The notes: generated by a model not told the origin, from the sequence alone. Counted from the stretch's first letter, positions 9,650-49,103 are shown. The stretch is DNA of 58,246 bases from a virus (IMGVR_UViG_3300048586_000912:1-58246); one strand, 5' to 3'. Made by a program: numbers and translations.

Positions 9650-10242
9650 CAGCGATAAGCCTTGCGCAGTTCGGACGGCAGGGCATCCACCGCCGCCTTC
9701 AGAACACGCTCGCCATCCTTGCCGCGCAAAGCGCGCAGGAGATCGGCGGGCTCGGCCGTGAGCGCCCAGGCGAGGTCGAAGGCCGAGGGCAGCAGGCCCG
9801 CGACAAGATCGAGCTTGAGCCCGAGATGGGGTTCCGGGATCGCGATGGCGCGCACCTCGCGCGCGCCATAGCGGAACGGATGGTCGAGGATCACCTCGCG
9901 CTTGGGCGGGATGAGATAGGCAATCTCCGGCGCGGGCGGCACCGGCGCCGGGTCTTCGCCGGCATCCTCCGGCGCGGCGGGCACCTCCCCCTCCCCTTCC
10001 ACCGGCGCAGCGCTGGCGAAGCCGGCAGAACGGGCCGCCTCCAGCGCGCGGCCGCGATCCATGGGGAACGGGTGGAGATCGGCCGGATCGACCGGGCCGC
10101 CACCCCAGATGTCGCGGGCGAAGGCCAGATCTTCCTCGGCGCCGTTCGCCACGGCGGGCGTGCCGCCCGCCTGCTCGGGAGTCTTGCTGGCGCCGTTCGC
10201 CACGGCGGGCGTGCCGCCCGCCTGCTCGGGCGCACTAGCCAT
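9649..10242 (-). CDS. Tail assembly chaperone with two in-frame repeat insertions
   Basis: Between tube and tape measure genes; PEQAGGTPAVANGA occurs twice. Confidence 0.7.
   Translation of the reverse strand: MASAPEQAGGTPAVANGASKTPEQAGGTPAVANGAEEDLAFARDIWGGGPVDPADLHPFPMDRGRALEAARSAGFASAAPVEGEGEVPAAPEDAGEDPAPVPPAPEIAYLIPPKREVILDHPFRYGAREVRAIAIPEPHLGLKLDLVAGLLPSAFDLAWALTAEPADLLRALRGKDGERVLKAAVDALPSELRKAYR
10138..10230 (-). repeat. Two copies of the 42-bp CCCGAGCAG-hairpin-GCGAA element (51-bp period)
   Basis: Identical 42-mers at 10138-10179 and 10189-10230. Confidence 0.9.
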
Positions 10243-10780
10243 TGGGGAGCGCCAGCGCGCGGTTGAAGGCGGCGCCCTGGTCGACGCCGCCGACCTTCCA
10301 GCCGCCGGTGAAGAAGTCCCACTCCTTCAGCGGCTCGGTGCGGCCTTCCCACCATTCCTCGAAGTGCATGATCTCATTGAGCGCGTAGTTCGCGCCCATG
10401 GCCGAGCCCTTCTCGAACTGGTCTTCCTCGATGGAGCCGAGGCGCGCCTCGATGATCAGCTTGCGCTGGATGATCTTGCCGGACTGCAGGTCGCGGAAGG
10501 CGTTGTAGCCGGTGTAGATGTGCCGGTCGATGGAGCCGAGGCCGAACAGGCCCACCATGTCCGGATCGGTGCCGAAGAAGGCGAAGGTCGCGCCGAACTT
10601 CTCGATGCCCACCGCGAACTCGGTCGCCACCATGGCGCCGCCTGCCCGGTGATCCACCATGGTCTCGCGGAAGGCTTCGAGCTTGAAGTTCTTGATGACC
10701 AGGTGCTTCGACTTGTCCGGCTCGTGATCCCCGCAATAGAGGTTCACGCCCTCCCAATGATAGATGGTATTGCGCGCCAT
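10235..10780 (-). CDS. Major tail tube protein (FII-like)
   Basis: Follows the sheath; DHRAGG...IEK, and WDFFTGGWKVGGVDQ. Confidence 0.88.
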   Translation of the reverse strand: MARNTIYHWEGVNLYCGDHEPDKSKHLVIKNFKLEAFRETMVDHRAGGAMVATEFAVGIEKFGATFAFFGTDPDMVGLFGLGSIDRHIYTGYNAFRDLQSGKIIQRKLIIEARLGSIEEDQFEKGSAMGANYALNEIMHFEEWWEGRTEPLKEWDFFTGGWKVGGVDQGAAFNRALALPNG

Positions 10781-10811
10781 AGGTTTTCTCCTTTGTCCCG
10801 GTCACTCGACG

Positions 10812-10877
10812 CCGCGGGCGCCAGCCCGCCCCGCGCCGGAGACGGCGGGTTGGCGGGCGGCGCCGTCTCCGGCGCGG
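10812..10877. repeat. Conserved-loop hairpin, copy 2
   Basis: Perfect 17-bp stem over 10831-10877; loop CCGCCCGCCAACC on the minus strand. Confidence 0.85.
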
Positions 10878-10881
10878 AAAA

Positions 10882-12159
10882 TCAAACGCCCAGGCGCGTC
10901 AGCGCCTCGGCGAGGTCTTTCACGAACACCTCGACGGCGGCGCGGTTGGGGGTGGTGCGCAGGTGCGCGCGGCGCCAGACGGAGGGGATTTCGTAGACCG
11001 GATCGAGGGTGATGCGGCCCTCGCGGATCTCGTCGACGCCGTTCTGGTCGGGGTCGAAGCGGATGCGCGAGCCCTTGTAGAGGTGGCTGTCCGCCTCCAG
11101 CATGCGCAGGCGCTTGTTGAGCTGGTTGACGCAGGCCTGCACCGCCTGAAGCGTCACGTTGCTGCGGCCGAGATAGTTGCGGATGGTCTTGAGCTCGGAC
11201 AGCCAGATCCAGTCATTGCCGCGGGTCTGGTGATAGAACGGCCAGGTGAGCGTCGTGTCCGCATGGTCGGTACCGATGAACACGAAGCCGGCATCCGCAA
11301 TGGCATCGTCCACGCCCATCTCGCCGCGCTCGACGATGCCGATGCCGGCGGCGAGCAGGTCCTGCCCCTCATTGGCGCCGTCCACCAGCGAGAAGGAATG
11401 GTCCCAGCCCGGCGCCACGATTCCCGCCACGGGGCGGTTGGCGAAGGAATGGAACGGCATGCCGTCGTGCTCGTGGTCGACGCGCACGCCGAGGCCGAGC
11501 ACGCGCGGCGCCAGGGGGCGCTCCAGCGTCTCGCCCGCGCCGCCGCGCACCTTCACGCCCCCCACCACCGGGATCAGGCGCTTGGAGGAGAAGGTCTCGC
11601 GCCAGGTGATGGCGTCTTCCACCGAGCCCTTCGGCCCTTCCACCACGGAGACGGCAAACAAGTGGTCGAGCACGCTCGGCAGCTCGGCCACCACCACATT
11701 GGCCTCGTCCTCGCCGAGCAGCTGGTGGGTATAGCCCGGCACGCACACCATGCGCGGCGTGTAGCCGATCTGCGAGGCGGCGCCCTTGAGCGCGTGCAGC
11801 CCGGTCATGGCGGTGCTGTCGCCGGCGATGGCGAGCAAATCGGCCTCCAGCCGGTCCTGCGCGTCCTCTTCGGTCGAGTGCGGCGTGCGCACGATGCAGA
11901 CCTTGGCCGCGCGCTGGAACTCGCCGAGCTGGTCGTTGATGCCCTCCACCGCGTCGCGCAGCCAACCCTGGGTGCCGAGATTGGCGAGGGTGTTGGCGTC
12001 ATTGGAATAGACGGCCACCGGCTCGTTGGCCGGGAACGCCGCCGCGTCCGCGGCCGGCGCGGGGCCGACGAGGGCGATGGTGGAGAAGTCGCCACCGGCG
12101 ACGGAGCGGTATTCGTCGTTGCGCTGCTCGAACGTGACGCCGAAGGTCGGTTCGGTCAT
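10882..12159 (-). CDS. Tail sheath protein (FI-like)
   Basis: TGLHAL...GYTPRMVCVPGY and PFHSFANRPVAGIV motifs. Confidence 0.92.
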   Translation of the reverse strand: MTEPTFGVTFEQRNDEYRSVAGGDFSTIALVGPAPAADAAAFPANEPVAVYSNDANTLANLGTQGWLRDAVEGINDQLGEFQRAAKVCIVRTPHSTEEDAQDRLEADLLAIAGDSTAMTGLHALKGAASQIGYTPRMVCVPGYTHQLLGEDEANVVVAELPSVLDHLFAVSVVEGPKGSVEDAITWRETFSSKRLIPVVGGVKVRGGAGETLERPLAPRVLGLGVRVDHEHDGMPFHSFANRPVAGIVAPGWDHSFSLVDGANEGQDLLAAGIGIVERGEMGVDDAIADAGFVFIGTDHADTTLTWPFYHQTRGNDWIWLSELKTIRNYLGRSNVTLQAVQACVNQLNKRLRMLEADSHLYKGSRIRFDPDQNGVDEIREGRITLDPVYEIPSVWRRAHLRTTPNRAAVEVFVKDLAEALTRLGV

Positions 12160-12235
12160 GTCAGCCTCCAGGGAAGATGTGGGCGCCGGCGGCGCCGAGA
12201 GAGGGAATTCCGCCTAGGCGGGGATTCTTGTGGGC

Positions 12236-12377
12236 GCCATTCGCTACGGCAGCGCTGCGCGCCGCCTGCTCGGGCATGTTGCCGGAGCCATTCGCTACGG
12301 CAGCGCTGCGCGCCGCCTGCTCGGGCATGTTGCCGGAGCCATTCGCTACGGCAGCGCTGCGCGCCGCCTGCTCGGGC
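12236..12377 (-). repeat. Tandem array, ~2.8 x 51 bp, of the CCCGAGCAG-hairpin-GCGAA element
   Basis: Identical units start at 12236, 12287 and 12338. Confidence 0.92.
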
Positions 12378-12387
12378 TCACTCGGGC

Positions 12388-12723
12388 TCAGAGCGTTGCC
12401 GCCAGCCGGAAGAGGTCGTCGATCTCGCCCGGCGCGAGGCCGAAGGCGGCGCCGATCTCGGCCACGAAGGGGTCGGCGCGCCGCCAGACGGGATTGGCGC
12501 TGAGGATGCGGGCGCGCTCGCGCGCCAGCGGGTCCTCCATGGCGTCGATGGCGGCGCCGATCTGCGCCTCGGTGATGGGCGTCTCGCCGCCTTCGAGGAG
12601 CGCGAGCAGAGCCTGCGTGCGCGTGACCTGCACGGGCACCAGTCCCGCTGCGCTCTCGGCATTCCAGGCGGCCTGCTCGGCGTCGGAGAGGTCCGTCAGG
12701 ACGCCATTGATGAGGGCCTGCAT
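12388..12723 (-). CDS. Tail fibre assembly-like protein
   Basis: Starts MQALING; VPVQVTRTQALLAL, ends EIDDLFRLAATL; coupled to the fibre gene. Confidence 0.7.
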   Translation of the reverse strand: MQALINGVLTDLSDAEQAAWNAESAAGLVPVQVTRTQALLALLEGGETPITEAQIGAAIDAMEDPLARERARILSANPVWRRADPFVAEIGAAFGLAPGEIDDLFRLAATL

Positions 12724-14033: not shown

Positions 14034-14034
14034 G

Positions 14035-14253: not shown

Positions 14254-14265
14254 CAGCGCTGCTCC

Positions 14266-23807: not shown

Positions 23808-25449
23808 TGCGCGCATCCTCGTTCTGTTCGTCGGGCCCACCGTTGGGACCGGGCACCGCCGCGGGGTTGAGCAGCGCGCCCTCGGGCAGGCCGTAGGACG
23901 CCTCCAGCTCGCGCACGCGCTTCAATTCCCGCGCGCGCTGCTCGAGGTTCTCTTCCCAATCGAGCCCCTGCTCGGCGGCCTCGCGCTCCAGGGTCGAGAT
24001 GCCGAGGCGCACGCGCAGGTCCGCCGCCTGCGCCTCCTTGAGCGGGTCCACCCAGCCGCGGCCCGGCATGCGCCAGCGGGCGCGGGTCCAGGCGGCGCGG
24101 GCCTCCTCGAATGAGGGCGAGGTGCGCGGCAGGACGATGCGCCGGCGCGCCACCGCCTCCTCGAACCAGCGCACATAGATGGGCTGGACGAACTGGTGGG
24201 CGAAGTGGCCGGCGCGGGCGGTGAAGCCGCGCCACACCTCCAGCAGCGCGGCGCGGGCCGAGGAATAATTGACCTGGCCCCAATCGGCCGAAAGCTGCTC
24301 GTAGGTGATGCCGAGGGCCGAGGCGATGTTGCGCAGCGAGGCGCGGGTGAAGCTCTCGAACACCGAGTTCGGGTGGTGCGGGTTGGAGAGCTTGATCTCC
24401 TCGCCCGGCGCCAGGAAGTTGATGGCGGCGCCCGGCAGCGTCATGGGCGGCGCCTCGGCCCAATGCTTCTCGCGCGCCGCGCTCATGGCGTCGAGAATGT
24501 CCTCGGTCTTCGAGCCGCCGGCCATGGCTTCCGCCATGGCGTCGGGATCGTAGGGCGTGGTCACGAAGGCCGCGAGCACGGCATTGATGACCGCCGCCTG
24601 CAGCTCCGCCTCGTCGTAGCGGCCGAGCATGCGCAGCTTCTTAACCACGCTGGCGAGCGCCGGCACGCCGCGAATCTGGCCCGCGCGGGTGGGCTCGAAG
24701 GCGTGCACCACGAGGCGCCGGCCGCCCATGAAGCGCGGCACGCGCAAATGCTCGGCATCGCGCCAGGTGAAGGCTTCGCCGGGATGGGCGCGGCGGATGT
24801 GATAGGCGAGCGGCTCGGTGCTCGGACCAAGCTCGATGCCCTGGCGGAAACGGTCGGTCTCGGGCGCCGCCTGCGGCTGGGACAGCCGGTCGGGGTCCAC
24901 CACCTGGATCGCGGTCGCCCAGGGGCCGCCGCGCTCGTCGAAGGAGATGACGGCGAGCGCCTCGCCATCCATGGCGCGGTGCCGGTAGGCGAGCGCCAGC
25001 AGTCCGCCGAAGCCGTTGCGCATCTCCGTGTCGCACCAGCAATCGGGATCGGTGGCCCAATCCTCGAACTCCGCCTCGATCTGCGCGGCGATGTCGGTGG
25101 CGGCGGCGTCGTCGAGCCTGAGGCGGCGCCGGTTGAGCAGCGCATTGAGGCCCCAGCCGCCGCCGATGACGTTGTCCACCAGGCGATCGAGCCCGGCGGA
25201 GGCCCAGCCGTCATTGCGCGCCAGATCGTGGATGCGCGAGGTGAGCAGGTTGCGATCAGGCGAGAGCGCCGACTGCGCCGAGAAGGCGCGCGGCAGCCAG
25301 GACGCGAGGTCCTGGTGGGTGCGCGAGGCGCCCTGATAGCCGGCGTCCGCGCGGGGAATGGCACGCTCGCCCGCCCCGGGCGCGCCGGGTTGGCCTGCGG
25401 CGGCGCGCCCGGGGCGGAAAAGCTCAGCCAACGCGCTGCGCAGGCCCAT
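23797..25449 (-). CDS. Portal protein, lambda family
   Basis: DLARNDGWA, GQIRGVP, VNYSSARAALLE, GWVDPLKE. Confidence 0.95.
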   Translation of the reverse strand: MGLRSALAELFRPGRAAAGQPGAPGAGERAIPRADAGYQGASRTHQDLASWLPRAFSAQSALSPDRNLLTSRIHDLARNDGWASAGLDRLVDNVIGGGWGLNALLNRRRLRLDDAAATDIAAQIEAEFEDWATDPDCWCDTEMRNGFGGLLALAYRHRAMDGEALAVISFDERGGPWATAIQVVDPDRLSQPQAAPETDRFRQGIELGPSTEPLAYHIRRAHPGEAFTWRDAEHLRVPRFMGGRRLVVHAFEPTRAGQIRGVPALASVVKKLRMLGRYDEAELQAAVINAVLAAFVTTPYDPDAMAEAMAGGSKTEDILDAMSAAREKHWAEAPPMTLPGAAINFLAPGEEIKLSNPHHPNSVFESFTRASLRNIASALGITYEQLSADWGQVNYSSARAALLEVWRGFTARAGHFAHQFVQPIYVRWFEEAVARRRIVLPRTSPSFEEARAAWTRARWRMPGRGWVDPLKEAQAADLRVRLGISTLEREAAEQGLDWEENLEQRARELKRVRELEASYGLPEGALLNPAAVPGPNGGPDEQNEDARNAL

Positions 25450-25664: not shown

Positions 25665-25674
25665 GGATGGGGTC

Positions 25675-29127: not shown

Positions 29128-29157
29128 GTGATGCACCAAACTTATGTCGAAAGTCAA
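29128..29157 (-). promoter_or_regulatory. Putative late promoter (pR'-like)
   Basis: TTGACT at 29157-29152 overlapping the regulator stop; weak -10. Confidence 0.5.
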
Positions 29158-34220: not shown

Positions 34221-35005
34221 GCCACCCTCTCGACAACTTGAGCGCGAGCAGGCAGGCTCGAAGAACGATGGCACGACGATATGAGATACTGCTGGCGGTC
34301 GCGGTGGGAGCAGCCGGAGGCATTTCGGCGTCTGCCGCTGTTATTTGGACAAGCCGCGTACACGACGCGGCCTGGGTATCCCTCATGGGTTCGATTTTTG
34401 GTGGCTTCGTAGGGGGTGTTACGACCCTCGTTGCCGCGTGGATTGCGTGGCGCGGCATCAAAGCTCAGATGCTCGAACAAAAGAGAGCAATGGCATTTCC
34501 GTTTCGCGTACGGGAGTATGAAGCAATCTGCGAACGCCTCCCAGGAACGCAGAACATCATGCTTTTTTCGAACGTAATACTCAATTTGTTTGGAGATGAA
34601 ACGAAAACACATAATGAAATTCGTCAAACTATTTTCTCCTTTTTCGCAAAGAAAAAATTGTCCGAGAGCGAAATTCGATCGTTTCAGATACGGAAATTCA
34701 TCGAAGATCGATGCAGAAACACAAATGTCCTTTTGCAGAATCAATTCATATCCGCACTGGAATTTGTTCAACAAACTGCTGAGATACCGGTTGAGTATGC
34801 GCGCAGCATCCATGCAGATGACGTGATAAAGGAGCAAATTGAAAGTCGCATTTCGAACAATACTGAACAATGCCAATTCGCTATGAAGCGGCTCAGGTCG
34901 GCATGCACTCACATTGCCGAAAGTGCGGATCGTGACGAGCGCCGAAGTCGTGCGCTCAAAAATGAGATCGATGCCGTCCTCGGCGACCCCGCCATAGATT
35001 AACAT
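34217..35005 (-). CDS. Bridging ORF antisense to 34268-35002, coupled to both MTase genes
   Basis: Start overlaps the N6/N4-MTase stop (TGATG); stop overlaps the C5-MTase start (ATGA). Confidence 0.4.
   Translation of the reverse strand: MLIYGGVAEDGIDLIFERTTSALVTIRTFGNVSACRPEPLHSELALFSIVRNATFNLLLYHVICMDAARILNRYLSSLLNKFQCGYELILQKDICVSASIFDEFPYLKRSNFALGQFFLCEKGENSLTNFIMCFRFISKQIEYYVRKKHDVLRSWEAFADCFILPYAKRKCHCSLLFEHLSFDAAPRNPRGNEGRNTPYEATKNRTHEGYPGRVVYAACPNNSGRRRNASGCSHRDRQQYLISSCHRSSSLPARAQVVERVA
34268..35002 (+). CDS. AT-richer antisense accessory membrane protein (moron)
   Basis: 244 aa, two N-terminal TM helices, composition differs from flanks. Confidence 0.75.
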   Translation: MARRYEILLAVAVGAAGGISASAAVIWTSRVHDAAWVSLMGSIFGGFVGGVTTLVAAWIAWRGIKAQMLEQKRAMAFPFRVREYEAICERLPGTQNIMLFSNVILNLFGDETKTHNEIRQTIFSFFAKKKLSESEIRSFQIRKFIEDRCRNTNVLLQNQFISALEFVQQTAEIPVEYARSIHADDVIKEQIESRISNNTEQCQFAMKRLRSACTHIAESADRDERRSRALKNEIDAVLGDPAID

Positions 35006-36516
35006 CACTCCGCCGCCTCCCCTGCTTCGTCTGCGCCGAACAGCGGCAGCGGTGCGGTCTGAGCGCCGCGCGCCTTCGCTGCCTCTCGCTTGCGGGTGGC
35101 GGGGCCGGCGAGGCACAGGTCCATGCGGCGGCGAATGTCCGCCTGATACTCGGCCTCGCGCTCGATCAGCACGGCCGAGAACCCCTCGCGCCACGCCGCC
35201 TCGCCCGTAGTGCCGGTGCCCGCGAACGGGTCCAGCACCGTGCCGCCGGGCGGCGTCACAAGGCGGCAGAGCCACTGCATCAGATCCACCGGCTTGACAG
35301 TGGGGTGCTTGGAGCCGAGGCGGTCTTCCGCATCGGCTTTGGACGAATAGAAGAAGCGGGCGGCGGAGCCGCCGGAATCGGCATGGCCGCGCGAGACCCA
35401 ATCGCCTGCGGATTTCCCCATGGACGAGCTGGCATTATGTGCCGCAGCCGAATTGCGACGCTCCCCGCCCGATGAGGCCGCGGCTTCAGGAAACGCCCCC
35501 ACCACCTCCGGCGAGCCGTCGTGCAGCACGTTCGCAGGCCAGCGACCGAGGCCGGTGTCTCCAACGGCGCGGGAGCCGCCGAGGCCGGAACCAAACGTGT
35601 TGCGGTTTTGGTCGACGGAGGGGTTGGCCCGAGACACGCGCCGTGGCCGGGCGCCTTCGGTTTCAACCCGGCACCCATCGATATTGAGTGCCCCCGTCCC
35701 ATGCGCGAGCACATTGGCCGCCACGGTGCCGTCCAGCGGCTTGCGCGCGAGAATGATCGGCTCCCAAGCTGGTTTGACTGCCGTTCCCCAGCCCTGCCAA
35801 GTGGCGGCTTCAGGCGAGCCGGGCACATAGTCCCCCGGCTGATACTTGCGGTCGGCCAGCTTTTCCCATGAGCCATCCTTGTGCTGGTCGGCACCGGGCC
35901 GGATGCGCCGAACGGGTGCGCCGGTCGGCACCACTTCGCCTTCGACACCGAGGGCCTTGTCGATCCCCTTCGCCAGGTCGTGGCTCTTGGGGAAGCCCGA
36001 GCCGTAGACCCACGCCAGCAGCCCCTCGAAGCCGAGCAGGTCCATCACCCGCAGGAAGGCGGAAAGCTGGGCATCCGAAAGCGAGTTGACGAAATCGCGG
36101 ATGATGGGGTCGCGGCTCATCAGCTCCAGCAGCGTGTCGCGCACCTCGAAGCCGGCATCCTCGATCGCGGATTTCAGCCGATGGTCGGTGCGCGTGCCGC
36201 CGAAAGCCACGACGTGGCCGCCCGGCTTGAGCACCCGCAGCACCTCGGCCCAAAACTCGGCCGCGAACGCGGTCTCGCCGGTGTCCCACTGCTTCCCCAT
36301 GAAACCCGCCGAGGCGCGGGCATAGAGCCCGTCGCGCCCGTGCTGCGCCGGCGCCGCATCGGCCGCGCCGAAGCGCTTGCGGATGGAGACGAGCGCATAG
36401 GGCGGGTCCGTGACGACCGCATGGATGCTCGCGTCCGGCAGCGCGCGCAGCACCTCGCGGCTGTCGCCGCAATGGAGTGCCACCCGCCCGCCGAGGAATA
36501 GTTCGGGCGCGCTCAT
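35005..36516 (-). CDS. DNA N6-adenine/N4-cytosine methyltransferase (beta class)
   Basis: TDPPY precedes HPTVKP and DPFAGTGTT. Confidence 0.93.
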   Translation of the reverse strand: MSAPELFLGGRVALHCGDSREVLRALPDASIHAVVTDPPYALVSIRKRFGAADAAPAQHGRDGLYARASAGFMGKQWDTGETAFAAEFWAEVLRVLKPGGHVVAFGGTRTDHRLKSAIEDAGFEVRDTLLELMSRDPIIRDFVNSLSDAQLSAFLRVMDLLGFEGLLAWVYGSGFPKSHDLAKGIDKALGVEGEVVPTGAPVRRIRPGADQHKDGSWEKLADRKYQPGDYVPGSPEAATWQGWGTAVKPAWEPIILARKPLDGTVAANVLAHGTGALNIDGCRVETEGARPRRVSRANPSVDQNRNTFGSGLGGSRAVGDTGLGRWPANVLHDGSPEVVGAFPEAAASSGGERRNSAAAHNASSSMGKSAGDWVSRGHADSGGSAARFFYSSKADAEDRLGSKHPTVKPVDLMQWLCRLVTPPGGTVLDPFAGTGTTGEAAWREGFSAVLIEREAEYQADIRRRMDLCLAGPATRKREAAKARGAQTAPLPLFGADEAGEAAE

Positions 36517-40800: not shown

Positions 40801-40830
40801 GGCTGCTGCCTCGTGGTGTCAAGCGAAAAC

Positions 40831-40869
40831 GCGTTTCCCGGTCCGGGAAAACGCAGTGCGTTTTCCCGG
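40831..40869. promoter_or_regulatory. Overlapping palindromes upstream of the cII-like gene
   Basis: CCGGGAAAACGC-AGT-GCGTTTTCCCGG (40843-40869) plus an alternative arm GCGTTTCCCGG. Confidence 0.55.
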
Positions 40870-41487: not shown

Positions 41488-41840
41488 GCCGATTCCTCGC
41501 AAGGCAGGCCAACCTTGAACACCGGCTGGAAGGAGAAGAACCCATGACCAAGGCGACGGACGACGAATTGCGGGGGCGGCTCATGGCCCTCGAGACCATC
41601 GTGGTGACGCTGGCGGCGCACATGGCCGCCCACACCTCCGATCCCGTGCTCTTCACCGCACAGGTGATGGACGATGTGGAACGCGCGCTGCGCAACGCCG
41701 AGGAGACGGCGCCGAAAGGAATGGAGAAGACGGCGCGCTACGCCGTCGCCAGCTTCGAGGCGCTCTCCGCCGGGATGCTGGCCCACCTGAACCGCTACGC
41801 GGTCCCGCAAGGCAAGGGCTGACCAGAGAAATCGGCTCAT
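41484..41840 (-). CDS. Bridging ORF antisense to 41544-41822
   Basis: GGAGG SD; ATGA overlaps at both ends. Confidence 0.35.
   Translation of the reverse strand: MSRFLWSALALRDRVAVQVGQHPGGERLEAGDGVARRLLHSFRRRLLGVAQRAFHIVHHLCGEEHGIGGVGGHVRRQRHHDGLEGHEPPPQFVVRRLGHGFFSFQPVFKVGLPCEESA
41544..41822 (+). CDS. Antisense small helical protein
   Basis: AGGAG SD; normal codon usage; protein-like sequence. Confidence 0.75.
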   Translation: MTKATDDELRGRLMALETIVVTLAAHMAAHTSDPVLFTAQVMDDVERALRNAEETAPKGMEKTARYAVASFEALSAGMLAHLNRYAVPQGKG

Positions 41841-42253
41841 GCCGCCTCCTCCCGCGCGGCCGCGGCGAAGTCCGCGAGCCAGCGTTTGACGAAGCGGCGG
41901 ACGTACCAATCTTCGGGCGACATGCCCCCGAGATCGTGAAGGGACAGATCATGAAGACCGGTCAGACGCTTGAGGACCTCGAAATCAAGCTGCAGGGCAA
42001 GCTCCTCGCCCTTGAGCTGGTGCTCATCCAGATCCTGCGCACCGTGCCCGAAGCCGACAAAAGGCTCGGCATGGCGCTGCGCGCGCTGGGCGAAAACAGC
42101 GAGGATGTCACGGCGCTCCAGGCGGCGCATGACCACGAAAAGCTTGCGCCCCATATCCGCGAAGCGGCGTTCTGGCACATCGAGGAGATGGCCCGCGCCT
42201 TCGACGACATGGACGACCTCGATCCCGGGCTCGATGACGTTTGACGCGCTCAT
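41837..42253 (-). CDS. Bridging ORF antisense to 41951-42244
   Basis: Coupled to the cro stop (GGAGGCTGCATGA); ends EEAA with an ATGA overlap. Confidence 0.4.
   Translation of the reverse strand: MSASNVIEPGIEVVHVVEGAGHLLDVPERRFADMGRKLFVVMRRLERRDILAVFAQRAQRHAEPFVGFGHGAQDLDEHQLKGEELALQLDFEVLKRLTGLHDLSLHDLGGMSPEDWYVRRFVKRWLADFAAAAREEAA
41951..42244 (+). CDS. Antisense small acidic helical protein
   Basis: MKTGQTLEDLEIKLQG...; protein-like sequence. Confidence 0.7.
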   Translation: MKTGQTLEDLEIKLQGKLLALELVLIQILRTVPEADKRLGMALRALGENSEDVTALQAAHDHEKLAPHIREAAFWHIEEMARAFDDMDDLDPGLDDV

Positions 42254-42540
42254 GCAGCCTCCTCTCGCGCCGTCGGGGCGTCGTCATTGGCGGGCTTGGG
42301 CGGCAAAGGGCGCGGTTCGGGGCGGGGAATGTCGCCGGGCCAGTCGGCGCCGTCAGGCCAATTGGCAGAGAACCATTCCAGGGCGCGGCCGAGCCGCCGG
42401 GCGCCGATCTCGCTGCCACCCCGCAAGGCGGCCAGCCGCTTCCCATCGGTGAAGCAACGCGACGAAACGGTCGCCTCGGCGAGGCCGGTGGCGGCGCAAT
42501 AGCGCTCTGCGAGACGCAGGAGTTGGGCAATGGCATCCAT
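42250..42540 (-). CDS. Cro-like protein
   Basis: Divergent from cI; TVSSRCFTDGKRL, WFSANWP....WP. Confidence 0.8.
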   Translation of the reverse strand: MDAIAQLLRLAERYCAATGLAEATVSSRCFTDGKRLAALRGGSEIGARRLGRALEWFSANWPDGADWPGDIPRPEPRPLPPKPANDDAPTAREEAA

Positions 42541-42549
42541 GACGATGGC

Positions 42550-42609
42550 ACAATGCGGTACATATACCGCACCTGTCAAGCACCCGGACTACGACGGTAC
42601 ATTTACCGC
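42550..42609. promoter_or_regulatory. OR-like operators and pR promoter
   Basis: GCGGTACATATACCGC 42555-42570 and ACGGTACATTTACCGC 42594-42609; minus-strand TTGACA-18-CATTGT. Confidence 0.85.
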
Positions 42610-42646
42610 TAAAGCCCCCGCTCTGGCGCGGTCATATTCCCACGCC

Positions 42647-43408
42647 ATGAATGCCGCCGACCTCCTGTCCCGCATTGATCGCCGCCTGCTGGCGCTCGGG
42701 TTGTCCGAGCGCGCGGCGAGCCTGAAGGCGCGCAACAAGCCGGACATCATCCGCAACATCCGGCGCGCGGTCGAGAAGTCCGAGCCTTATGACCCCCGCT
42801 CCGGCACCATCGAGGCGCTGGCCCCGGTGCTCCGCACCACCACGGAGTGGCTCGTGCACGGGACGGGGCCGGAGGAGATTTCCGGCGCCGAGGCCGCAAG
42901 GGGCGTGCTCCAGATCGCCGAGCGCCGCGCCCGCAAGGCAGCGCGCGGCGCGGCAGATGCTCATGCAATTCGCGAGATCGAGATCCACGCCGGCATGGGC
43001 GGCGGCGGCGTGCCCGCGCGCGAGATGGCGCAGATCGTCGGCCGCGAAAGCTACGCGGCCGACGCCGTCCGCGGCTATTGGGTGTTTCCCGACCACGCGT
43101 TGCGCGCGCTCGGCCTTGATCCGAGCTTTGCGGATATCGTGCCGGGTGTCGGCGATTCCATGGAGCCGGACATCCGCAGCGGCGACTGGTGCGTGATTGA
43201 TCGGCGCCATCGCGTGCCCTCGCCGGATGGCATCTATGCGCTTTGGGATGGCTTCAGCGTCGTGTTCAAGTCGCTGCAACTGATCCCCAACAGCGACCCA
43301 GTGAGCGTACGGATCATCTCCAAAAACACCGCCTATGAGAGCTACGAGCGCGCGCTTGAAGAGGTGGCCGTGATCGGCCGCGTGGTCAGCCTGGTTCGGG
43401 CGCTCTAG
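42647..43408 (+). CDS. CI-like repressor (HTH + S24 peptidase)
   Basis: HAGMG cleavage site, GDSMEP catalytic Ser, VFKSL Lys. Confidence 0.92.
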   Translation: MNAADLLSRIDRRLLALGLSERAASLKARNKPDIIRNIRRAVEKSEPYDPRSGTIEALAPVLRTTTEWLVHGTGPEEISGAEAARGVLQIAERRARKAARGAADAHAIREIEIHAGMGGGGVPAREMAQIVGRESYAADAVRGYWVFPDHALRALGLDPSFADIVPGVGDSMEPDIRSGDWCVIDRRHRVPSPDGIYALWDGFSVVFKSLQLIPNSDPVSVRIISKNTAYESYERALEEVAVIGRVVSLVRAL

Positions 43409-44255
43409 GCGGCAGGCAGGCGCGCAGCCGCGCCGCCCTTCCTTCCTCCAGGCGCGTCTTGGCGCCATCCGCCAGCATCAGCGCATCCATTGTGGCGATG
43501 AACCGCGCCGCCTCCGCACGCCCCATGCGGCCGATGGCCGTGCGCGTGTCGGCGAAGATCGGCCTTTCATTGCGAATCCATATCCGCGCCGCCTCTCGGC
43601 TCCAGGCCTGCGGCCCCTGCCGGCCGGCAGCTGCACGAAACGCCACCCAATCCAGCAGGACCTCGATCTCGCTTTCTGACATCTCGCCATCGGCGGCCGC
43701 CAGCCAGATGAGCCCGCGCAGGCCGCCGCGCGCGCGTTCCATCACCCGTTCGTGCGTCTTGGGTATCGAAAGGCCGGCATAAGGATCGGGCGGCGCGGGC
43801 CAGCCTAAAATTTCGTCCCGCCGCGCCACTGAAACTCCTGGATAGGCCGCGAAATATGCCGCTGCCGCAGCGACGGCGCGGCCGGAGGGCAGTTCGGAGA
43901 GCCTCAACATTCGGTCGGCGCGAAACGTTCTTTCCTCATGCCGCAAGCCGCAATAGGCCGTCACATAGAGGATGCCGGTATAGGCTTCTCTCTGCACGGA
44001 CAGGACACGGATGCTGCGCGAGGTTACTTCGCCGAGAGCGTCGGCATACTCGATCCAGTGCGTAAACCCCGCGCGCGGCGGCGGGCGGGCCGGCGATACC
44101 ATTCGGGCGTCTTGCCGCGGTTCGCGCCGCTCCTCTCGCCGGGGCCGCTCGGGCTCGAACGGCAGCGCCTCGTGTGATCGCGCACGCTTTGGCCGCCATC
44201 GCCATGCGGCGACCGCGACGCCGACGACGATAGCCGCGAAGAGCAGAAACTCCAT
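43386..44255 (-). CDS. Membrane-anchored WYL-like + TerB-like protein
   Basis: N-terminal TM; IEYADALGEVTSR...AYCGLRHEERTFRADRM; LAAADGEMSESE and LADG. Confidence 0.75.
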   Translation of the reverse strand: MEFLLFAAIVVGVAVAAWRWRPKRARSHEALPFEPERPRREERREPRQDARMVSPARPPPRAGFTHWIEYADALGEVTSRSIRVLSVQREAYTGILYVTAYCGLRHEERTFRADRMLRLSELPSGRAVAAAAAYFAAYPGVSVARRDEILGWPAPPDPYAGLSIPKTHERVMERARGGLRGLIWLAAADGEMSESEIEVLLDWVAFRAAAGRQGPQAWSREAARIWIRNERPIFADTRTAIGRMGRAEAARFIATMDALMLADGAKTRLEEGRAARLRACLPPRAPEPG

Positions 44256-44257
44256 GA

Positions 44258-44674
44258 TCAGCGCCGCCGGGACGGAACCTCGGATTTGATCTTCGCCCAG
44301 TCCGAATCGGCTGGAGTATCCACCGCTCGCGCAGGAGGTGGCGGCGGCGGCGCTGGGCTGGCGATGGGGGCCTTGACGCTGGCATTCACCCGCGCGACGG
44401 CGGAAGCCACGTCCTTCAAGCCGCACTCGATATTGAACCCGACATAGATGATGGACGCGGAAACCAGCGCCGCCAGATAGAGAACCGCGCTCAGGATCTG
44501 ATGGATGACCGTCGGGCCGAAGAAGGTCAGGCCTGCGGCGACCAGCAGCACGATGGACACCGCTATCGAAATGGCGCTGCGCGCCATGATCGAGAGGATG
44601 AACGGCGCAGCGGCGGCGAGAGCCGCGATGACAAAGAGAAGCTGCCCAAAAACCGCCGCGCCGGGTGTTCCCAT
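44258..44674 (-). CDS. Three-TM membrane protein
   Basis: Hydrophobic helices and Pro-rich tail; 2 bp from the WYL-TerB start. Confidence 0.7.
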   Translation of the reverse strand: MGTPGAAVFGQLLFVIAALAAAAPFILSIMARSAISIAVSIVLLVAAGLTFFGPTVIHQILSAVLYLAALVSASIIYVGFNIECGLKDVASAVARVNASVKAPIASPAPPPPPPARAVDTPADSDWAKIKSEVPSRRR

Positions 44675-44748
44675 CTGCCCCTCCAGATGATGGACGACAT
44701 GAAGACACGCAGCGATTGCGCGCGCAACTGAGGAACGCCGCTCGATAT

Positions 44749-44802
44749 GCGGTATTTGTCCCGCATATTGACTTGACGCGGTACATATACCGCGTCTAAG
44801 GT
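44749..44802 (+). promoter_or_regulatory. OL-like operators and pL promoter
   Basis: GCGGTATTTGTCCCGC 44749-44764 and GCGGTACATATACCGC 44778-44793; TTGACG-18-TAAGGT. Confidence 0.85.
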
Positions 44803-44830
44803 TCGCCCATCACACCCGATGGGGACACCA

Positions 44831-45229
44831 ATGCAGCTTCCCAACCAGATCACCGACGCCGAGGCCGCCGGCCTCATGGCGATCCTCGCGCCGCTCAAGC
44901 CCCGGCTCGCCGATCTTGAAGGCAACATCGACAACATCGAGGACGCGGCCCGCGTGCTGGCGGACCTCACCGCCGCATCGAACCAGGCGGAGACGCTGCG
45001 CGACGCCATCGACGCCGACACGCACGGCGCCGAGCACGCGCAGGCCGAGGACCTTGCGGCGCACCAGGAGGGGCTCCTTTCCGAGGAGCAGACCGCAGCC
45101 GCCCTCCACGCTTTGCATGCGCTGCGCGCGCTGGAGGCGCTGAAGACCGAGGTGGACGCCGCCCTTGCCGCCTTCCGCGCCGCGCTCGCCGCCGCCGCGG
45201 CTGCCGAGCAGACCAAGGACGCCGCGTGA
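44831..45229 (+). CDS. Hypothetical helical protein
   Basis: First ORF after pL. Confidence 0.7.
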   Translation: MQLPNQITDAEAAGLMAILAPLKPRLADLEGNIDNIEDAARVLADLTAASNQAETLRDAIDADTHGAEHAQAEDLAAHQEGLLSEEQTAAALHALHALRALEALKTEVDAALAAFRAALAAAAAAEQTKDAA

Positions 45230-45630
45230 TGGCGCCGGTCTATCCCACCTTCGCGGCGCGGGACGTGGTGCGCTGCATCCACCCCACGGGGTTGCTGGTG
45301 AAGGGCCAGATCTACCTCGTCTCGGGCGTGGAGCCGGCCGAGGATGCCCTGGCTGCCGCGCGCGGCGAGGGGCCCTATGTGCACCTCGACCGCATCAGCG
45401 GCAGCTTCATCGCCCAGCGCTTCGTGCTGGTGGCGCGCGGCCCCGCGAACGACGACGAGGCCGTCGACATCCCCCGCCGCATGGCGGACGTGATGCGCGA
45501 GCGCGTGGCCCTGGCGGGCTCCTGCGACGCGCACGATTTGGCCCGCGCCGGATTCACCGCCGCGCAGATCCTCGAATATGCCGACGAGGCCCGCGGCATC
45601 GCCGGCCCGCCTCCCGCCGAGGTGGCGTGA
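45229..45630 (+). CDS. Hypothetical protein
   Basis: TGATG-coupled. Confidence 0.7.
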   Translation: MAPVYPTFAARDVVRCIHPTGLLVKGQIYLVSGVEPAEDALAAARGEGPYVHLDRISGSFIAQRFVLVARGPANDDEAVDIPRRMADVMRERVALAGSCDAHDLARAGFTAAQILEYADEARGIAGPPPAEVA

Positions 45631-45947
45631 TGCAGCGGGTGTCGTTCCCCCTCATCGGCCACGCGCTCGCAGCGATGGCGGCCGGCGCCGTCCGCGCCAT
45701 GGGCACGCCCGAACTCAAGGCCAAGGCGGAGGCGCTCGCCGCCGCCCAGGCCCGCCTCGCGCTCCAGGTGCCGCGCGGCCGCAAGGGCACCGTCCTGCGC
45801 CGCGCGGCGTACCGCGACCGCTCCCGCTACAGCGGCGCCATTCTCCGCGCCATCCGCGCCGAGCGCGGATGCGGTCGCCCGCCCAAGGTGCTTGCTGCCC
45901 GCCGGGCCAAGATCGCGGCGGCGCGCCAGATGACCGAGGCGGCGTGA
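45630..45947 (+). CDS. Hypothetical basic protein
   Basis: TGATG-coupled; MQRVSFPLIG... Confidence 0.6.
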   Translation: MQRVSFPLIGHALAAMAAGAVRAMGTPELKAKAEALAAAQARLALQVPRGRKGTVLRRAAYRDRSRYSGAILRAIRAERGCGRPPKVLAARRAKIAAARQMTEAA

Positions 45948-46249
45948 TGGTCCGCACCCTTGGCCTCCGCCTCACCAACCCCTTCCGGCGCTACTGCCCC
46001 CCGGCGCCGGGACATGCGGAGCCGCGGATGCCGCGCGCGCCCGAGCAGGTCGCGCGGCGCGCGGCCGTTGCGAACGGCGCCACGAACATCTGCGGCTCCG
46101 CGCCTTCCCCCTACCCCACCGATCCGGCGGCGGCCTTCGTGCAGCAGTGCGCCCTTGGGGCCGTGCACATCGGCGCCGGTGTCGGCCTGCTGTGGCTCGC
46201 CGGCGCCGCCGCCCTATTCCAGGCCACGCGCGAGATGATGGAGGTGTGA
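45947..46249 (+). CDS. Hypothetical protein containing an in-frame repeat element
   Basis: TGATG-coupled; APEQVARRAAVANGA. Confidence 0.55.
   Translation: MVRTLGLRLTNPFRRYCPPAPGHAEPRMPRAPEQVARRAAVANGATNICGSAPSPYPTDPAAAFVQQCALGAVHIGAGVGLLWLAGAAALFQATREMMEV
46040..46081 (+). repeat. CCCGAGCAG-hairpin-GCGAA element
   Basis: CCCGAGCA GGTCGCGC GGC GCGCGGCC GTTGCGAACGGCGCC. Confidence 0.85.
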
Positions 46250-46252
46250 CCC

Positions 46253-46531
46253 ATGGCGCTCATCACCTATTCGCCGTCCGGCACCGGGCCCGGCGCCATC
46301 GCCAAGCTGGTGTGGGCCGCGAGCCAGGCGCTGCTGCAGGCGGCGCGCGACGGCCAGCGCGAGGCCGCCGAGCAGATCGGCATGTGGCTCGCCAACACGC
46401 GGCCCGACCCGCGCTGCACGCCCCGCGTCCAGCGCACCATCGACCGCAGCCTGGAAATCGCCCGCGCCCGCCTCGGCGGCGCCGGGCCGGATTTCCAACC
46501 CATCCAGCCCGACGACGGAGAGGCGGCATGA
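46253..46531 (+). CDS. Hypothetical protein
   Basis: GGAGG SD; in operon. Confidence 0.6.
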   Translation: MALITYSPSGTGPGAIAKLVWAASQALLQAARDGQREAAEQIGMWLANTRPDPRCTPRVQRTIDRSLEIARARLGGAGPDFQPIQPDDGEAA

Positions 46532-46884
46532 GCGCGCCGGACAAATTTCTCACCGACGCGGCCATGGCGATCCCCAAGGAAGCCGCCGCTGCTCTCGGGG
46601 CGTCCGTGCGGCGGGCGTCAGACCTGCTGAATGAGGCGGCCCAAGGCCTCGGCCTCGTGCTCGATGCGCATAATTGCCCTTTGGTCCAGGCCCTTACCGC
46701 CAATGTCTTGGCCGAGATGTCCGGCGGGATGTACGCCCGGGCCGCATGGGTCGCGGCGGCCACCGGCGCCGAGCGGAAGGACGCCATGGAGCTGATCCAG
46801 TCCGCTTTCCTGAAGGGCAAGGAAGAGGCCCTCGACACCATGATGGCCGCCCGGCGCGCCGCTCAAGGGGAAACCATCCAATGA
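46528..46884 (+). CDS. Hypothetical protein
   Basis: ATGA-coupled at both ends. Confidence 0.6.
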   Translation: MSAPDKFLTDAAMAIPKEAAAALGASVRRASDLLNEAAQGLGLVLDAHNCPLVQALTANVLAEMSGGMYARAAWVAAATGAERKDAMELIQSAFLKGKEEALDTMMAARRAAQGETIQ

Positions 46885-47585
46885 GCGCCCGCACCGAAAA
46901 CCCCTGGATCCAGACCGGCACCGGCCGGGCGCTCGACCTCATGGCGCCGACGGCGGCCATGATCGACCTCGACACGGACGTGGCCGAGGCGCTCGCCCGC
47001 GAGCCGCGCTTCGGCGGGCACGTGCGCGGCGGCCCCTACAGCGTGGCGCAGCACATGGTGCTCGGCGCCGACGCCATCGTCGAGCAGACCGGCAGCATCG
47101 AGACCGCGCGGGCGTTCATCCTGCACGACGCGCACGAATATGCCTGCAAGGACATCATGACGCCGCTCGCCAAGGCGCTCGACTTGCGCGTGCGTACCAT
47201 CGCATCGGCGCGGGTGCGGCGGGTGCTGCCGACCTCATCGCAGGACGAGGTGGACCGCATCAGCGTGGGGCTCTTCCACGGCGCCCTTCACGCCCTGAAG
47301 GCCGACCTCGACCGCGCCATCCACGCCGCCGCCGGCCACCCCTGGCCGCTGGCGCCGGAGATCGCCAAGCGCGTGGCCGAATGGGACCTCGCCATGCTGG
47401 CGGCCGAGCGCCGCCATCTGCTCGCGCCTTCGCCGCAGCCGTGGGACCCCGCGGTGGAGGATTGGGCGCCCGCGAAGCTCAAGGGCCGCATCCAGGTCTG
47501 GCCCTGGCCCAAGGCCGCCGACGAATGGCGCGCGCGGCTCCACAGCTACTTCCCCCACCTCGCCGCCGCCAAGCGGGCGGCGTGA
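46881..47585 (+). CDS. HD-domain 5'-deoxynucleotidase (YfdR/YfbR-like)
   Basis: WIQT.TG, RFGGH, YSVAQH, LHDAHE, D..ML..ERR. Confidence 0.85.
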   Translation: MSARTENPWIQTGTGRALDLMAPTAAMIDLDTDVAEALAREPRFGGHVRGGPYSVAQHMVLGADAIVEQTGSIETARAFILHDAHEYACKDIMTPLAKALDLRVRTIASARVRRVLPTSSQDEVDRISVGLFHGALHALKADLDRAIHAAAGHPWPLAPEIAKRVAEWDLAMLAAERRHLLAPSPQPWDPAVEDWAPAKLKGRIQVWPWPKAADEWRARLHSYFPHLAAAKRAA

Positions 47586-47607
47586 CGTGCCCGCCGTCGC
47601 GAACGGC
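47569..47607 (+). repeat. Degenerate copy of the CCCGAGCAG element
   Basis: 3' half GCCCGCCGTCGCGAACGGC conserved. Confidence 0.6.
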
Positions 47608-47627
47608 ACAAACCAAAGGAGAATTCC

Positions 47628-47966
47628 ATGGCCCCGCGCCTCATCCGCAGCTTCTTCCAGGCTGCCGGCCTCATGCACCGCGGCAAGGTGGACGAGCGCC
47701 TCAATGCCGAGATGGGCAAGCTGCTCGAAGCCATCGAGCAGCACCCGGACGAAAAGGTGAGCGGCACGCTCTCGCTCTCCGTCACCGTGACCAAGGTCGG
47801 CGACCGGCTCTCCGTCCTGCCAAAGGTCGAGACCAAGCTGCCGAAGGAGAAGGGCTTCTCCGAGACCACCTTCTGGCTGGTCGACGGCGCGCTCTCGCTC
47901 GAGCACCCCGACCAGGCCGACATGTTCACGCCCCGCGACACCGCCCGCGCGCCCGCCGCCGGCTGA
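47628..47966 (+). CDS. YfdP-like hypothetical protein
   Basis: GTLSLSV...KLPK...FW...G.L..EHP.Q; precedes DUF2303. Confidence 0.7.
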   Translation: MAPRLIRSFFQAAGLMHRGKVDERLNAEMGKLLEAIEQHPDEKVSGTLSLSVTVTKVGDRLSVLPKVETKLPKEKGFSETTFWLVDGALSLEHPDQADMFTPRDTARAPAAG

Positions 47967-48009
47967 ACGCCCCCTCCCCGCGCTCCAGCGCCAACCCGAA
48001 GGACCGACC

Positions 48010-49056
48010 ATGACCGAAGAGACCAACAATCCGGACGCCGAAACGGCCGCTCCGGAGCGGGACGATCGCCCGCATCTTTCCATCGGCACGCTCATCGCCG
48101 AGCGGATCGACCAGAAGTACACGCCCTATTCCGGCGAGCTGCGCGGCGACGCCATCGACCGCATCAAGGCACTGGCGGCCGAGGGCACCGAGCCCAAGCT
48201 GGTGATGATCCCCACCGCCGGCTTCGGCCCCGATCTGCCCTCGCAGGTGCCCGTTTTGTGGGACCGAGCGGCGCAGGAGCCGATCCCCGTCATCGATATC
48301 ATCGAGGACGCCCGCCAGGCGCCTCGGCGCCGCGGCACCGCCAAGGCGACGACCCTCGCCTCGTTCGTGGATCTCGTGAACCGCCACAAGGATTCGGACT
48401 CGGCGATCTTCGCCGCGACCTCCTGGCCCGGGCCGAAGCTGACCGCGGTGATCGACTATCACACGCGCGACGGCGAGGCCCGGCGCGCGGCGCACCGCAT
48501 CGTCTACGACTTCCCCATCACCAAGGAGTTCAACGCCTGGATCCAGGGCGATGGCAAGCCCATGAGCCAGGTGGCGTTCGCCGCCTTCCTCGAGGACCAC
48601 GCGGCCGAGTTGGCGGCGCCCTATGATGCCGAGAAGTCCGAGATCGAGCCGCGCTTCAAGGAGCGCTTCGCGACGCCGGCCGAGCTGCTCGACCTCTCGC
48701 GCGAACTGGAGGTCCACGAGGGCTCGAAGGTCAAGCAGGGCGTGCGCCTGCAGACCGGAGAGCGGGTGGTGGAGTTCACCACCGAGCACACCAACAGCAA
48801 GGGCGAGAAGGTCAACATTCCCGGCATCTTCATCGTGTCGATCAAGCCCTTCCTGGAGGGCGACCGGCCGGTGGAGCCGGTGCGGCTTGTGGCGCGCCTG
48901 CGCTACCGCATCAGCGAAGGTGCGCTGCTCTGGTTCTACTCGCTCTATCGCTGGGAAGAGGTGCTGCGCGAGCGCATCCAGCTCGACCTCCTGCGCACCG
49001 CGAAGGAAACCGGACTGCCCTGCTTCGAGGGCACCCCGGAGATGGCGGCGGCCTGA
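48010..49056 (+). CDS. DUF2303 (YfdQ-like) protein
   Basis: TLASFVDLVNRH, LTAVIDYH, QVAFAAFLED, ARLRYR. Confidence 0.88.
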   Translation: MTEETNNPDAETAAPERDDRPHLSIGTLIAERIDQKYTPYSGELRGDAIDRIKALAAEGTEPKLVMIPTAGFGPDLPSQVPVLWDRAAQEPIPVIDIIEDARQAPRRRGTAKATTLASFVDLVNRHKDSDSAIFAATSWPGPKLTAVIDYHTRDGEARRAAHRIVYDFPITKEFNAWIQGDGKPMSQVAFAAFLEDHAAELAAPYDAEKSEIEPRFKERFATPAELLDLSRELEVHEGSKVKQGVRLQTGERVVEFTTEHTNSKGEKVNIPGIFIVSIKPFLEGDRPVEPVRLVARLRYRISEGALLWFYSLYRWEEVLRERIQLDLLRTAKETGLPCFEGTPEMAAA

Positions 49057-49060
49057 CGCG

Positions 49061-49103
49061 CCCGAGCAGGCGGGCGGCAACGCCCGCCGTCGCAAACGGC
49101 GCC
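49061..49103 (+). repeat. CCCGAGCAG-hairpin element (GCAA tetraloop)
   Basis: CCCGAGCA GGCGGGCG GCAA CGCCCGCC GTCGCAAACGGCGCC, intergenic. Confidence 0.85.

Follow-up and report, generated by a model that had tools for sequence, protein, structure and literature searches.

A putative palindromic insertion element, largely in one orientation, in temperate phages of Xanthobacter-like bacteria

The provirus record IMGVR_UViG_3300048586_000912 (here the window, meaning the whole stretch of DNA analysed: a complete provirus record of 58,246 bp with 70% G+C) contains a short element of the form CCCGAGCA-hairpin-GTNGCRAAYGGC, present at five loci in eight copies, seven of them exact and one truncated, every one on the coding strand. 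This raises the question: What is a hairpin repeat doing between, and even inside, the genes of a phage? The first-pass annotation took it for a candidate novel cis-acting RNA element, a signal for antitermination, processing or stability, or a protein-binding site. On balance I favour another answer, namely that it is a small palindromic insertion-and-duplication element of the kind known as repetitive extragenic palindromic sequences (REPs), Rickettsia palindromic elements (RPEs) or mycobacterial interspersed repetitive units (MIRUs), neutral to the reading frame and with possible side effects on mRNA. Its main carriers are temperate phages of Xanthobacter-like bacteria; a second form occurs at low copy number in related soil Alphaproteobacteria.

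The pattern CCCGAGCAGGN{13,18}CCGTNGCRAAYGGC (that is, CCCGAGCAGG-N13-18-CCGTNGCRAAYGGC) matches the window exactly seven times and matches none of 100 dinucleotide-preserving shuffles. Five of the matches lie on the minus strand (10141-10179, 10192-10230, 12236-12274, 12287-12325 and 12338-12376) and two on the plus strand (46040-46078 and 49061-49100). The 3' motif alone has eight matches against 0.23 expected, the eighth being 47596-47607, and a covariance model run with its filters off finds exactly eight copies, with nothing else above 16 bits in the window. Each of the eight is on the same strand as the surrounding genes, and copies occur in the minus and the plus gene blocks. The oriented copies of the first-pass annotation are thus real, as are their conserved flanks and their occurrence in both operons: its 10138 and 10189 are the copies at 10141 and 10192 counted 3 nt further out, and its degenerate copy near 47569 is a 5'-truncated one. 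The three stems that it quoted are correct, their two non-Watson-Crick pairs being G-T on the coding strand, and so are its remarks that one loop is GCAA and that two copies precede start codons, their ends lying 20 and 22 nt ahead of ATG.

Three of the eight copies (10141, 10192 and 46040) are in frame within open reading frames (ORFs), where they read PEQ...VANG. The first two form array A, a head-to-tail pair on the minus strand (10136-10183 and 10187-10234, together 10136-10234; 56.9 and 65.4 bits under the model) that begins 4 nt past the TAG stop of the tube gene (10235-10780, minus strand). The copies (PEQAGGTPAVANGA, twice) are in frame with a minus-strand ORF at 9649-10242, whose ATG overlaps the tube stop (ATGGCTAG). 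This ORF, with the tube gene on one side and the tape measure gene (7733-9649, minus strand) on the other, is at the tail-chaperone position, and array A makes up its first 36 codons; when it is compared by tblastn with a Xanthobacter tagetidis provirus (G008) that is about 95% identical to the window in its tail proteins, only residues 37-197 align. Array B, also on the minus strand, consists of three identical head-to-tail copies (12231-12278, 12282-12329 and 12333-12380, together 12231-12380) and lies between the sheath gene (10882-12159, minus strand, start 12159) and a small tail gene whose stop is at 12388-12390. The PEQ frame is open throughout array B, with a TGA stop one base ahead of the sheath ATG. 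Both arrays have a period of 51 nt. Just 3' of array B, at 12198-12235 on the minus strand, a perfect 12-nt palindrome, CCGCCTAGGCGG, lies with about 24 nt around it before the sheath ribosome-binding site; the stretch is absent from G008 and from the relatives in two public sequencing runs (X2 and X3), a terminator scan flags it on the plus strand, and it may be a second small insertion.

The remaining copies are single and lie on the plus strand. That at 46036-46083 (63.3 bits) is inside the ORF 45578-46249, which encodes a conserved small protein with a C-terminal hydrophobic stretch (a membrane-protein gene), conserved from about 45946 (VMVRTLGL...). About 15 residues (APEQVARRAAVANGATNI) come from the copy and are missing from the G008 orthologue in both protein and DNA alignments, the two proteins being 74.8% identical by tblastn across the C-terminal 103 residues. 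The 5'-truncated copy at 47564-47612 (25.1 bits) overlaps the TGA of the gene at 46674-47585 and retains only the 3' stem arm and GTCGCGAACGGC, after which come an A-rich linker, GGAG and an ATG at 47628; G008 has an intact copy at this site, 12 nt past the same stop. The single intergenic copy at 49057-49105 (61.4 bits), which has the GCAA loop and is the sole 40-nt copy in the window, begins 4 nt past the TGA of a DUF2303 gene (48010-49056), and its end is 22 nt short of an ATG at 49123. In the phage G006 the orthologous genes are 7 nt apart by tblastn, and the model detects no copy between them.

Is the hairpin itself conserved? An alignment of 39 distinct copies, drawn from the window, from three related phages and from host genomes, has nearly invariant flanks, CCCGAGCA and GTNGCGAAYGG, and a variable hairpin between them. 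The proposed structure of 14 pairs is 87.7% paired, with double-sided changes in 9 of the 14, and none of 500 shuffles attained its value on any of five measures of covariation, which bears out the earlier claim that the stems covary. Sliding the 3' partners by 1-3 columns drops the pairing to 25-50%, and RNAalifold independently returns an outer helix, a 2-bp helix and the hairpin. The outer helix extends 3 nt per side past the consensus of the first-pass annotation (GCG with CGC); it is backed by a few compensatory changes, for example GAG with CTC at 12333-12380, and its inner pairs are compatible with more than one register. The element as a whole, about 48-51 nt, is built of this outer helix (GCG-CCCG with CGG-CGC), a conserved asymmetric junction with AGCA on one strand and GUNGCGAA on the other, a variable hairpin of 5-8 bp and a short A-rich tail. 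Because single copies fold with energies no better than those of shuffled sequence (z -2.2 to +0.7), the support for this structure is conserved pairing and not stability. Wobble pairs are moderately biased towards the coding strand (G-U 18 versus A-C 8 over all model pairs, and 7 versus 2 in the hairpin). The gap from flank to flank is 13, 15, 16, 18, 19 or 20 nt and the arms vary; the flanks therefore meet only when a single strand folds, which is evidence against an operator in double-stranded DNA. The N of the GTNG 3' of the stem is T in 3, C in 8, A in 5 and G in 15 of 31 phage copies, and host copies mostly have CCGTCG. Rfam 15 has no relevant family around the copies at E <= 5, and none of its ribozyme families matches the element, in keeping with the novelty first proposed. 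When the junction was compared by eye with a kink-turn, a sarcin-ricin/loop E motif, a hammerhead core, an ops-like element and an attC-like site, none fitted.

How can such an element sit inside genes? The in-frame copies share one frame, CCC GAG CAG ... GTN GCG AAY GGC. In the beta clamp of G006 the in-frame copy is a 16-residue insert (RPPEQAAQAAVANGGTSN) in a turn, which is missing in the window's clamp and in the solved clamp 5wce. The C-terminus of the CHC2 primase is extended in frame by arrays of 2-4 copies in G006, L306 and L317, with the ATGA overlap with the next gene kept, and in one database entry the annotated protein includes the primase array. In G007, an O-like replication initiator and a ParB-methyltransferase have copies in their C-terminal parts, and L304 has two within the N-terminal region of a primase-helicase. 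The exception is the copy at G006 22491 (also in L335), which overlaps the end of an ORF in another frame. Of 32 phage-type copies, 29 have a core of 33, 36 or 39 nt, with three combinations of stem and loop length among them, and units in ORF-borne arrays are spaced by 45, 51, 57 or 66 nt. Within the 3' flank, variant cells of the alignment number 27 at four third-codon positions and 3 at the other eight positions. Judged from the sequences, these patterns of core length, spacing and 3'-flank codons fit translation of the in-frame copies. What makes the element tolerable within genes is the length of phage copies, 33, 36 or 39 nt, together with the blandness of the peptide (PEQ, small residues, VANG). 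Stem pairing is retained through double changes that alter the peptide. A search for longer proteins with the translated G006 array recovered only its own primase among the 8000 candidates scored, an outcome with little bearing on the number of proteins that contain the peptide.

The copies also come and go between close relatives, as seen when contigs from public runs are aligned to window positions 9600-12600. Before the sheath gene the window has three copies, G008 has one, runs X2 and X3 have one, and run X5 has none, with a clean joint from 12207 to 12388. After the tube gene the window has two copies, and G008 and runs X1, X2 and X3 have none. The window copy at 47564 is a 5'-truncated remnant of one intact in G008. 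Many genes are common to the window and G006, with identities of 50-80%, and none of the 5 window loci is filled in G006 and none of the 7 G006 loci in the window. The same stem variants recur at unrelated loci of different phages; the GGCCGC-GCAA-GCGGCC stem, for instance, is found in the G006 clamp, the L306 primase tail and the end of the L335 methyltransferase gene.

Where else does the element occur? Sequence collections were scanned by exact patterns only, which miss divergent copies, and the copy counts are not counts of independent events. In the genome collection the exact pattern found 36 stretches, mostly from uncultured Alphaproteobacteria, Xanthobacteraceae and Bradyrhizobium metagenome-assembled genomes (MAGs); one is a Xanthobacter tagetidis contig, and about 4 read as chance (Streptomyces, Dechloromonas and one MAG). 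It also found five viral stretches, and a second pattern and the model add Xanthobacter aminoxidans, Propylenella and more viral contigs. A loose pattern, CCGAGCAN{12,24}GTNGCRAAYGG, matched at least 119 viral and at least 120 genome stretches and was rejected: a 5-bp stem is present in 1 of 238 matches at new loci, and nearly all are chance. By the model, the window has 8 copies, G006 12, G007 3 and G008 2. One array of G006 (25873-25960, two copies) has a period of 46 nt, the sole array with a period that is not a multiple of three, and directly before it is a terminator-like hairpin with a T run (25850-25875; about 5850-5875 in L043).

Hosts carry far fewer copies. Five host genomes have 1-7 pattern matches each, and the model matches 5 of 151 sampled genomes of the family of the host genome G001, with at most 8 per genome (40 candidates per genome scored). 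Both neighbouring genes are co-directional with the element at 13 host loci, both are opposite at 2, and the neighbours are convergent at 9, as called by a crude heuristic based on G+C at third codon positions (GC3); the number of independent loci is smaller because many of them are orthologous. Abundant, randomly oriented host copies, which the first-pass annotation regarded as the mark of an ordinary REP, are thus not what was found, with 1-8 per genome and 13 co-directional against 2 opposite. Host copies are a second type, 40 nt long in 27 of 29 and with tandem G-A/A-G in the stem, and often lie within the loop region of a separate repeat, CCTCATSSTGAGGAG. Exact matches to this repeat number 63 in G001, 79 in G003, 17 in G005 and 0 in G002, and the element sits in a minority of these. 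The resemblance to CCTGAGGAG palindromes of Rhizobiales proposed at the outset accordingly reflects a link that is real and indirect, the element being often nested in that more abundant host repeat; the two are neighbours, not relatives. In host MAGs the repeat (CCTCATSSTGAGGAG...CCTCAT...) occurs mostly as inverted pairs 80-95 nt apart, with 130-195 nt between the members of those pairs that bear the element; no exact match to the repeat is present in the X. tagetidis genome. The chromosomal copies adjoin housekeeping genes outside prophages, and some lie in a 5' untranslated region behind a TATAAT-like box, an arrangement kept in three genomes. Orthologous host loci are about 97% similar overall, a level at which any extra conservation of the element over its surroundings would not stand out.

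I suggest that the copies arise by a copy-and-paste or templated process acting on one folded strand, which would give them a single orientation, and that the conserved junction would be what the copying process or a binding factor recognises. Most copies would then be passengers, with an RNA-level effect at most on mRNA stability, processing or coupling near the stop codon, effects that the REPs of enterobacteria have.

Several observations weigh against insertion and duplication as the whole explanation. Among the 17 distinct phage loci (window 5, G006 7, G007 3, L304 2) the element is sense at 16 and antisense at 1, or 8 and 1 if only intergenic loci are taken, and neutral insertion does not explain this bias; the sole antisense copy is at G006 40817-40864, between the tape measure gene and the baseplate-hub gene. 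The 5' flank CCCGAGCA is invariant even at synonymous positions, and a constraint at the level of the nucleic acid therefore persists inside genes. Near-invariant flanks around widely differing stems look more like a structure that is recognised than like recent copies of a single master. Where filled and empty sites were compared, neither a target-site duplication nor a clean insertion boundary can be seen. The Y1 transposase family PF01797 was detected in 0 of 5 genomes searched (the window, G006, G001, G003 and G005) versus 6 of 14 control genomes. Comparison of 46 window ORFs with PHROGs, Pfam or NCBIfam gave no match to a transposase, reverse transcriptase or other mobilising enzyme. Host copies, finally, are few and stand at orthologous places in several genomes. 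The invariant junction and the orientation bias above all leave some probability to readings in which a factor recognises the folded junction on RNA or on single-stranded DNA.

Might the element be a cis-acting RNA module under selection? It is possible, if clearly less probable, that the hairpin with its junction is a target for binding or cleavage by a conserved host factor, for instance an RNase or an RNA-binding protein, and that the in-frame copies are a tolerated by-product. Placed after stops and before an A-rich linker and a Shine-Dalgarno sequence, such a module would govern how stable segments of the mRNA are, how they are processed or how well translation of one cistron is insulated from that of the next. 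It would account for the prevalence of sense copies (16 of 17 phage loci, and most of those in hosts), for invariant flanks around a covarying stem, for a flank distance so variable that the flanks can be read together only in the folded strand, and for wobble that favours the coding strand. Placement points the same way: at 8 independent loci CCCGAG follows the stop codon of a long ORF of high GC3 by 2-4 nt, an A-rich tail, GGAG and a start codon come after many phage copies in the regular form CGCCACGAA...GGAG...ATG, and the host copies in 5' untranslated regions behind a TATAAT-like box suit it as well. However, ribosomes would keep unfolding the copies inside ORFs, copies are dispensable in near-identical phages, and phage copies have lengths in multiples of three; the host genes that flank copies have no obvious common function, Rfam has no match, and the folding energy is no better than that of shuffles. 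As for transcripts, no RNA run with the window was found as raw reads, and the sole RNA run listed has 0.05 of the sampled words and is available as contigs only.

The RNA signal of the first-pass annotation thus holds in part. The strand-specific covarying hairpin stands; a dedicated regulatory role is at odds with the in-frame copies, the turnover and the lengths in multiples of three. Antitermination in particular is not borne out, since 3 of the 8 copies are inside ORFs and terminator-like sites after copies, in a crude consensus scan, number 2 against 1.6 and 4 against 1.7 in shuffles, no excess, with no sense-strand site downstream of the plus-strand copies. A dedicated antitermination or processing signal is therefore insufficient, given the in-frame copies, their lengths and the loss and gain between near-identical phages, and mRNA processing or stabilisation is a possible, putative role. 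The passenger and RNA-module readings are not exclusive.

A more speculative reading, which I put forward tentatively, would make the junction (AGCA opposite GUNGCGAA) a portable recognition structure for a putative host or phage factor acting on one folded strand, whether RNA or single-stranded DNA. The element would then be a coding-neutral cis signal, not junk, which phages spread through their operons and even inside genes, its length and frame making it invisible to translation.

A signal in single-stranded DNA, with the hairpin on the lagging-strand template serving phage replication or recombination (loading of a primase or primosome, or an attC-like recombination site), seems unlikely. 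The strand of the element flips where gene direction flips, both in the window (about 41.5 kb, minus to the left and plus to the right) and in G006, which fits replication from a divergent region as well as it fits transcription; transcription and the orientation of a hypothetical bidirectional origin are therefore inseparable here. The phage also encodes two primase-like proteins, a beta clamp and SSB, the structure is kept while the stem sequence is free, as in attC, and G-T wobble is tolerated in DNA hairpins too. Against this stand the host chromosomal copies beside housekeeping genes and outside prophages, the one antisense copy in G006, conserved ends that differ from attC core sites, and the dispensability of the copies. 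Least probable is a coding module, in which protein-level selection would favour a PEQ-x-VANG peptide linker and the hairpin would be secondary: all ORF-internal and in-frame terminal cases but one share a frame, 3'-flank variation falls at synonymous third positions and lengths are multiples of three, but double changes keep the stem paired and alter the peptide, the 5' flank has no synonymous variation, and some copies are untranslated or out of frame (window 49061 and 47564, G006 22491, and the 40-nt host copies, some with in-frame stops).

The rest of the provirus is that of a temperate phage with two gene blocks. Minus-strand genes run from about 558 to 41502 and include the exonuclease, tape measure, tube and sheath genes, two primase-like genes, two DNA methyltransferase genes and a CII-like gene; plus-strand genes, from 41544 to 57204, include a CI-like repressor gene, the DUF2303 gene and genes for the beta clamp, SSB and an integrase. 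Beyond the integrase gene (55957-57204) comes a tRNA gene in the opposite orientation (57764-57837), the sole Rfam match in the window that reaches its gathering score, and this end looks like the attachment-site end of the provirus. A cluster resembling nucleotide metabolism comprises a gene like that of a deoxynucleoside monophosphate phosphatase (46674-47585), the DUF2303 gene (48010-49056), a DUF5131 gene (51952-52929; a weak radical-SAM mobile-pair match, far under the cut-off) and a nucleoside deoxyribosyltransferase gene (54239-54718). Beside it are the two DNA methyltransferase genes (32370-34274 and 35005-36516), and the cluster may be a DNA-modification module. A phrog_9306 protein is common to four phages (29154-30038 in the window, 24908-25786 in G006 and 8802-9605 in G007), and hairpin copies adjoin its gene, after it in G006 and before it in G007; the protein was dropped as a lead, PDB sequences (best E 0.55) and NCBIfam giving no notable match. 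Tandem Repeats Finder reports unrelated repeats, an 18-nt unit x2.4 inside the tape measure gene and a 25-nt unit x2 (7825-7868 and 3488-3538). As for close phage records, megablast against GenBank phages gave only a 55-nt tape-measure match for a first query and no match for a second. A search with the tube protein recovered only the X. tagetidis prophage, in viral and genome collections alike.

What would a palindromic insertion-and-duplication element of this kind mean? Small palindromic repeats are familiar from bacterial chromosomes. The present family is concentrated in temperate phages and keeps to a single orientation, and its lengths and frame let it fit inside essential replication genes. 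A search of papers for the literal sequence, together with Rfam, found no prior description, and the Bradyrhizobium and intragenic REP tables of PMC3733652 may already include the host type. For annotation the element is a trap: it extends proteins at the N- or C-terminus, makes small ORFs that are false and interrupts a beta clamp with insertions. With 0, 1 or 3 copies at one site it is also a natural marker of very recent prophage divergence, and it offers a compact test case for how a hairpin repeat spreads with no visible transposase and for whether such repeats act on mRNA.

Known systems resemble the element in part. A survey of REPs (PMC3733652) reports them near where ORFs end and within genes for replication and repair, and like them the element is a short, GC-rich, imperfect palindrome near ORF 3' ends and sometimes in frame in replication genes. 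It likewise forms clusters, is plausibly transcribed and has sub-families that differ in stem and loop. However, it has 1-8 copies per host genome and not hundreds, is far denser in phages (8 in 58 kb) and has two conserved non-palindromic flanks. Its arrays are all head-to-tail, unlike the inverted dimers of bacterial interspersed mosaic elements (BIMEs) and of REP doublets forming hairpins (REPINs), and the Y1 (IS200-like) transposase of those systems was not detected (PF01797 in 0 of 5). Compared with REP families tagged by GTAG or CGTC, its variable base is inside the would-be tag, GTNG, which lies 3' of the stem; in E. coli the REP tag is on the opposite side.

Like RPEs, the element is found in frame in unrelated genes, is absent from orthologues and adds a peptide at permissive sites. 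RPEs insert in frame (PMC10969869). They are about 100-150 bp and belong to Rickettsia; the present element, as far as a comparison by description goes, differs in being 33-51 nt, phage-borne and limited to one orientation and one frame. MIRUs insert in such a way that an ORF within them is coupled to the adjacent gene through a 4-nt overlap (PMC12548453). Here too, units of about 51 nt stand head to tail between cistrons, co-oriented with the operon and variable in number between strains, and at some loci their open frame overlaps the start or stop of a neighbour (ATGA at 49123 and at the G006 primase array, ATGGCTAG at 10242). Unit sizes of MIRU are comparable. MIRUs, on the other hand, are mycobacterial and not described as covarying hairpins, and in the present element frame coupling is found at some loci only: at window 10242 and 49123 and at the primase arrays of G006, L306 and L317, and not at G006 25873 and 34979 or window 47564.

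Among phages, the stoperators of Cluster A are oriented with transcription. A 17-bp repeat is described for Cluster O phages (PMC4351075). Like such palindromes and stoperators, the element puts many copies of a short motif across a genome, mostly at gene boundaries; those double-stranded sites have invariant arms and fixed spacing, whereas its arms covary and its flank distance changes. The intercistronic RNase III sites of phage T7 are sense hairpins with an internal loop between the cistrons of long operons, and the element, as known here from sequence, has the same outline; T7 sites are not known in frame inside genes or in host chromosomes. It differs from the nut, put and EAR antitermination RNAs in having 3 of 8 copies inside ORFs and no excess of terminators to be read through. 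The core sites of integron attC are RYYYAAC and GTTRRRY, unlike the conserved ends CCCGAGCA and GTNGCGAAYGG. The element differs from REPs, RPEs and MIRUs alike: with no visible transposase, it is enriched in phages, rare in hosts, one-way, arrayed head to tail and bounded by two conserved, non-palindromic flanks with a free stem between them.

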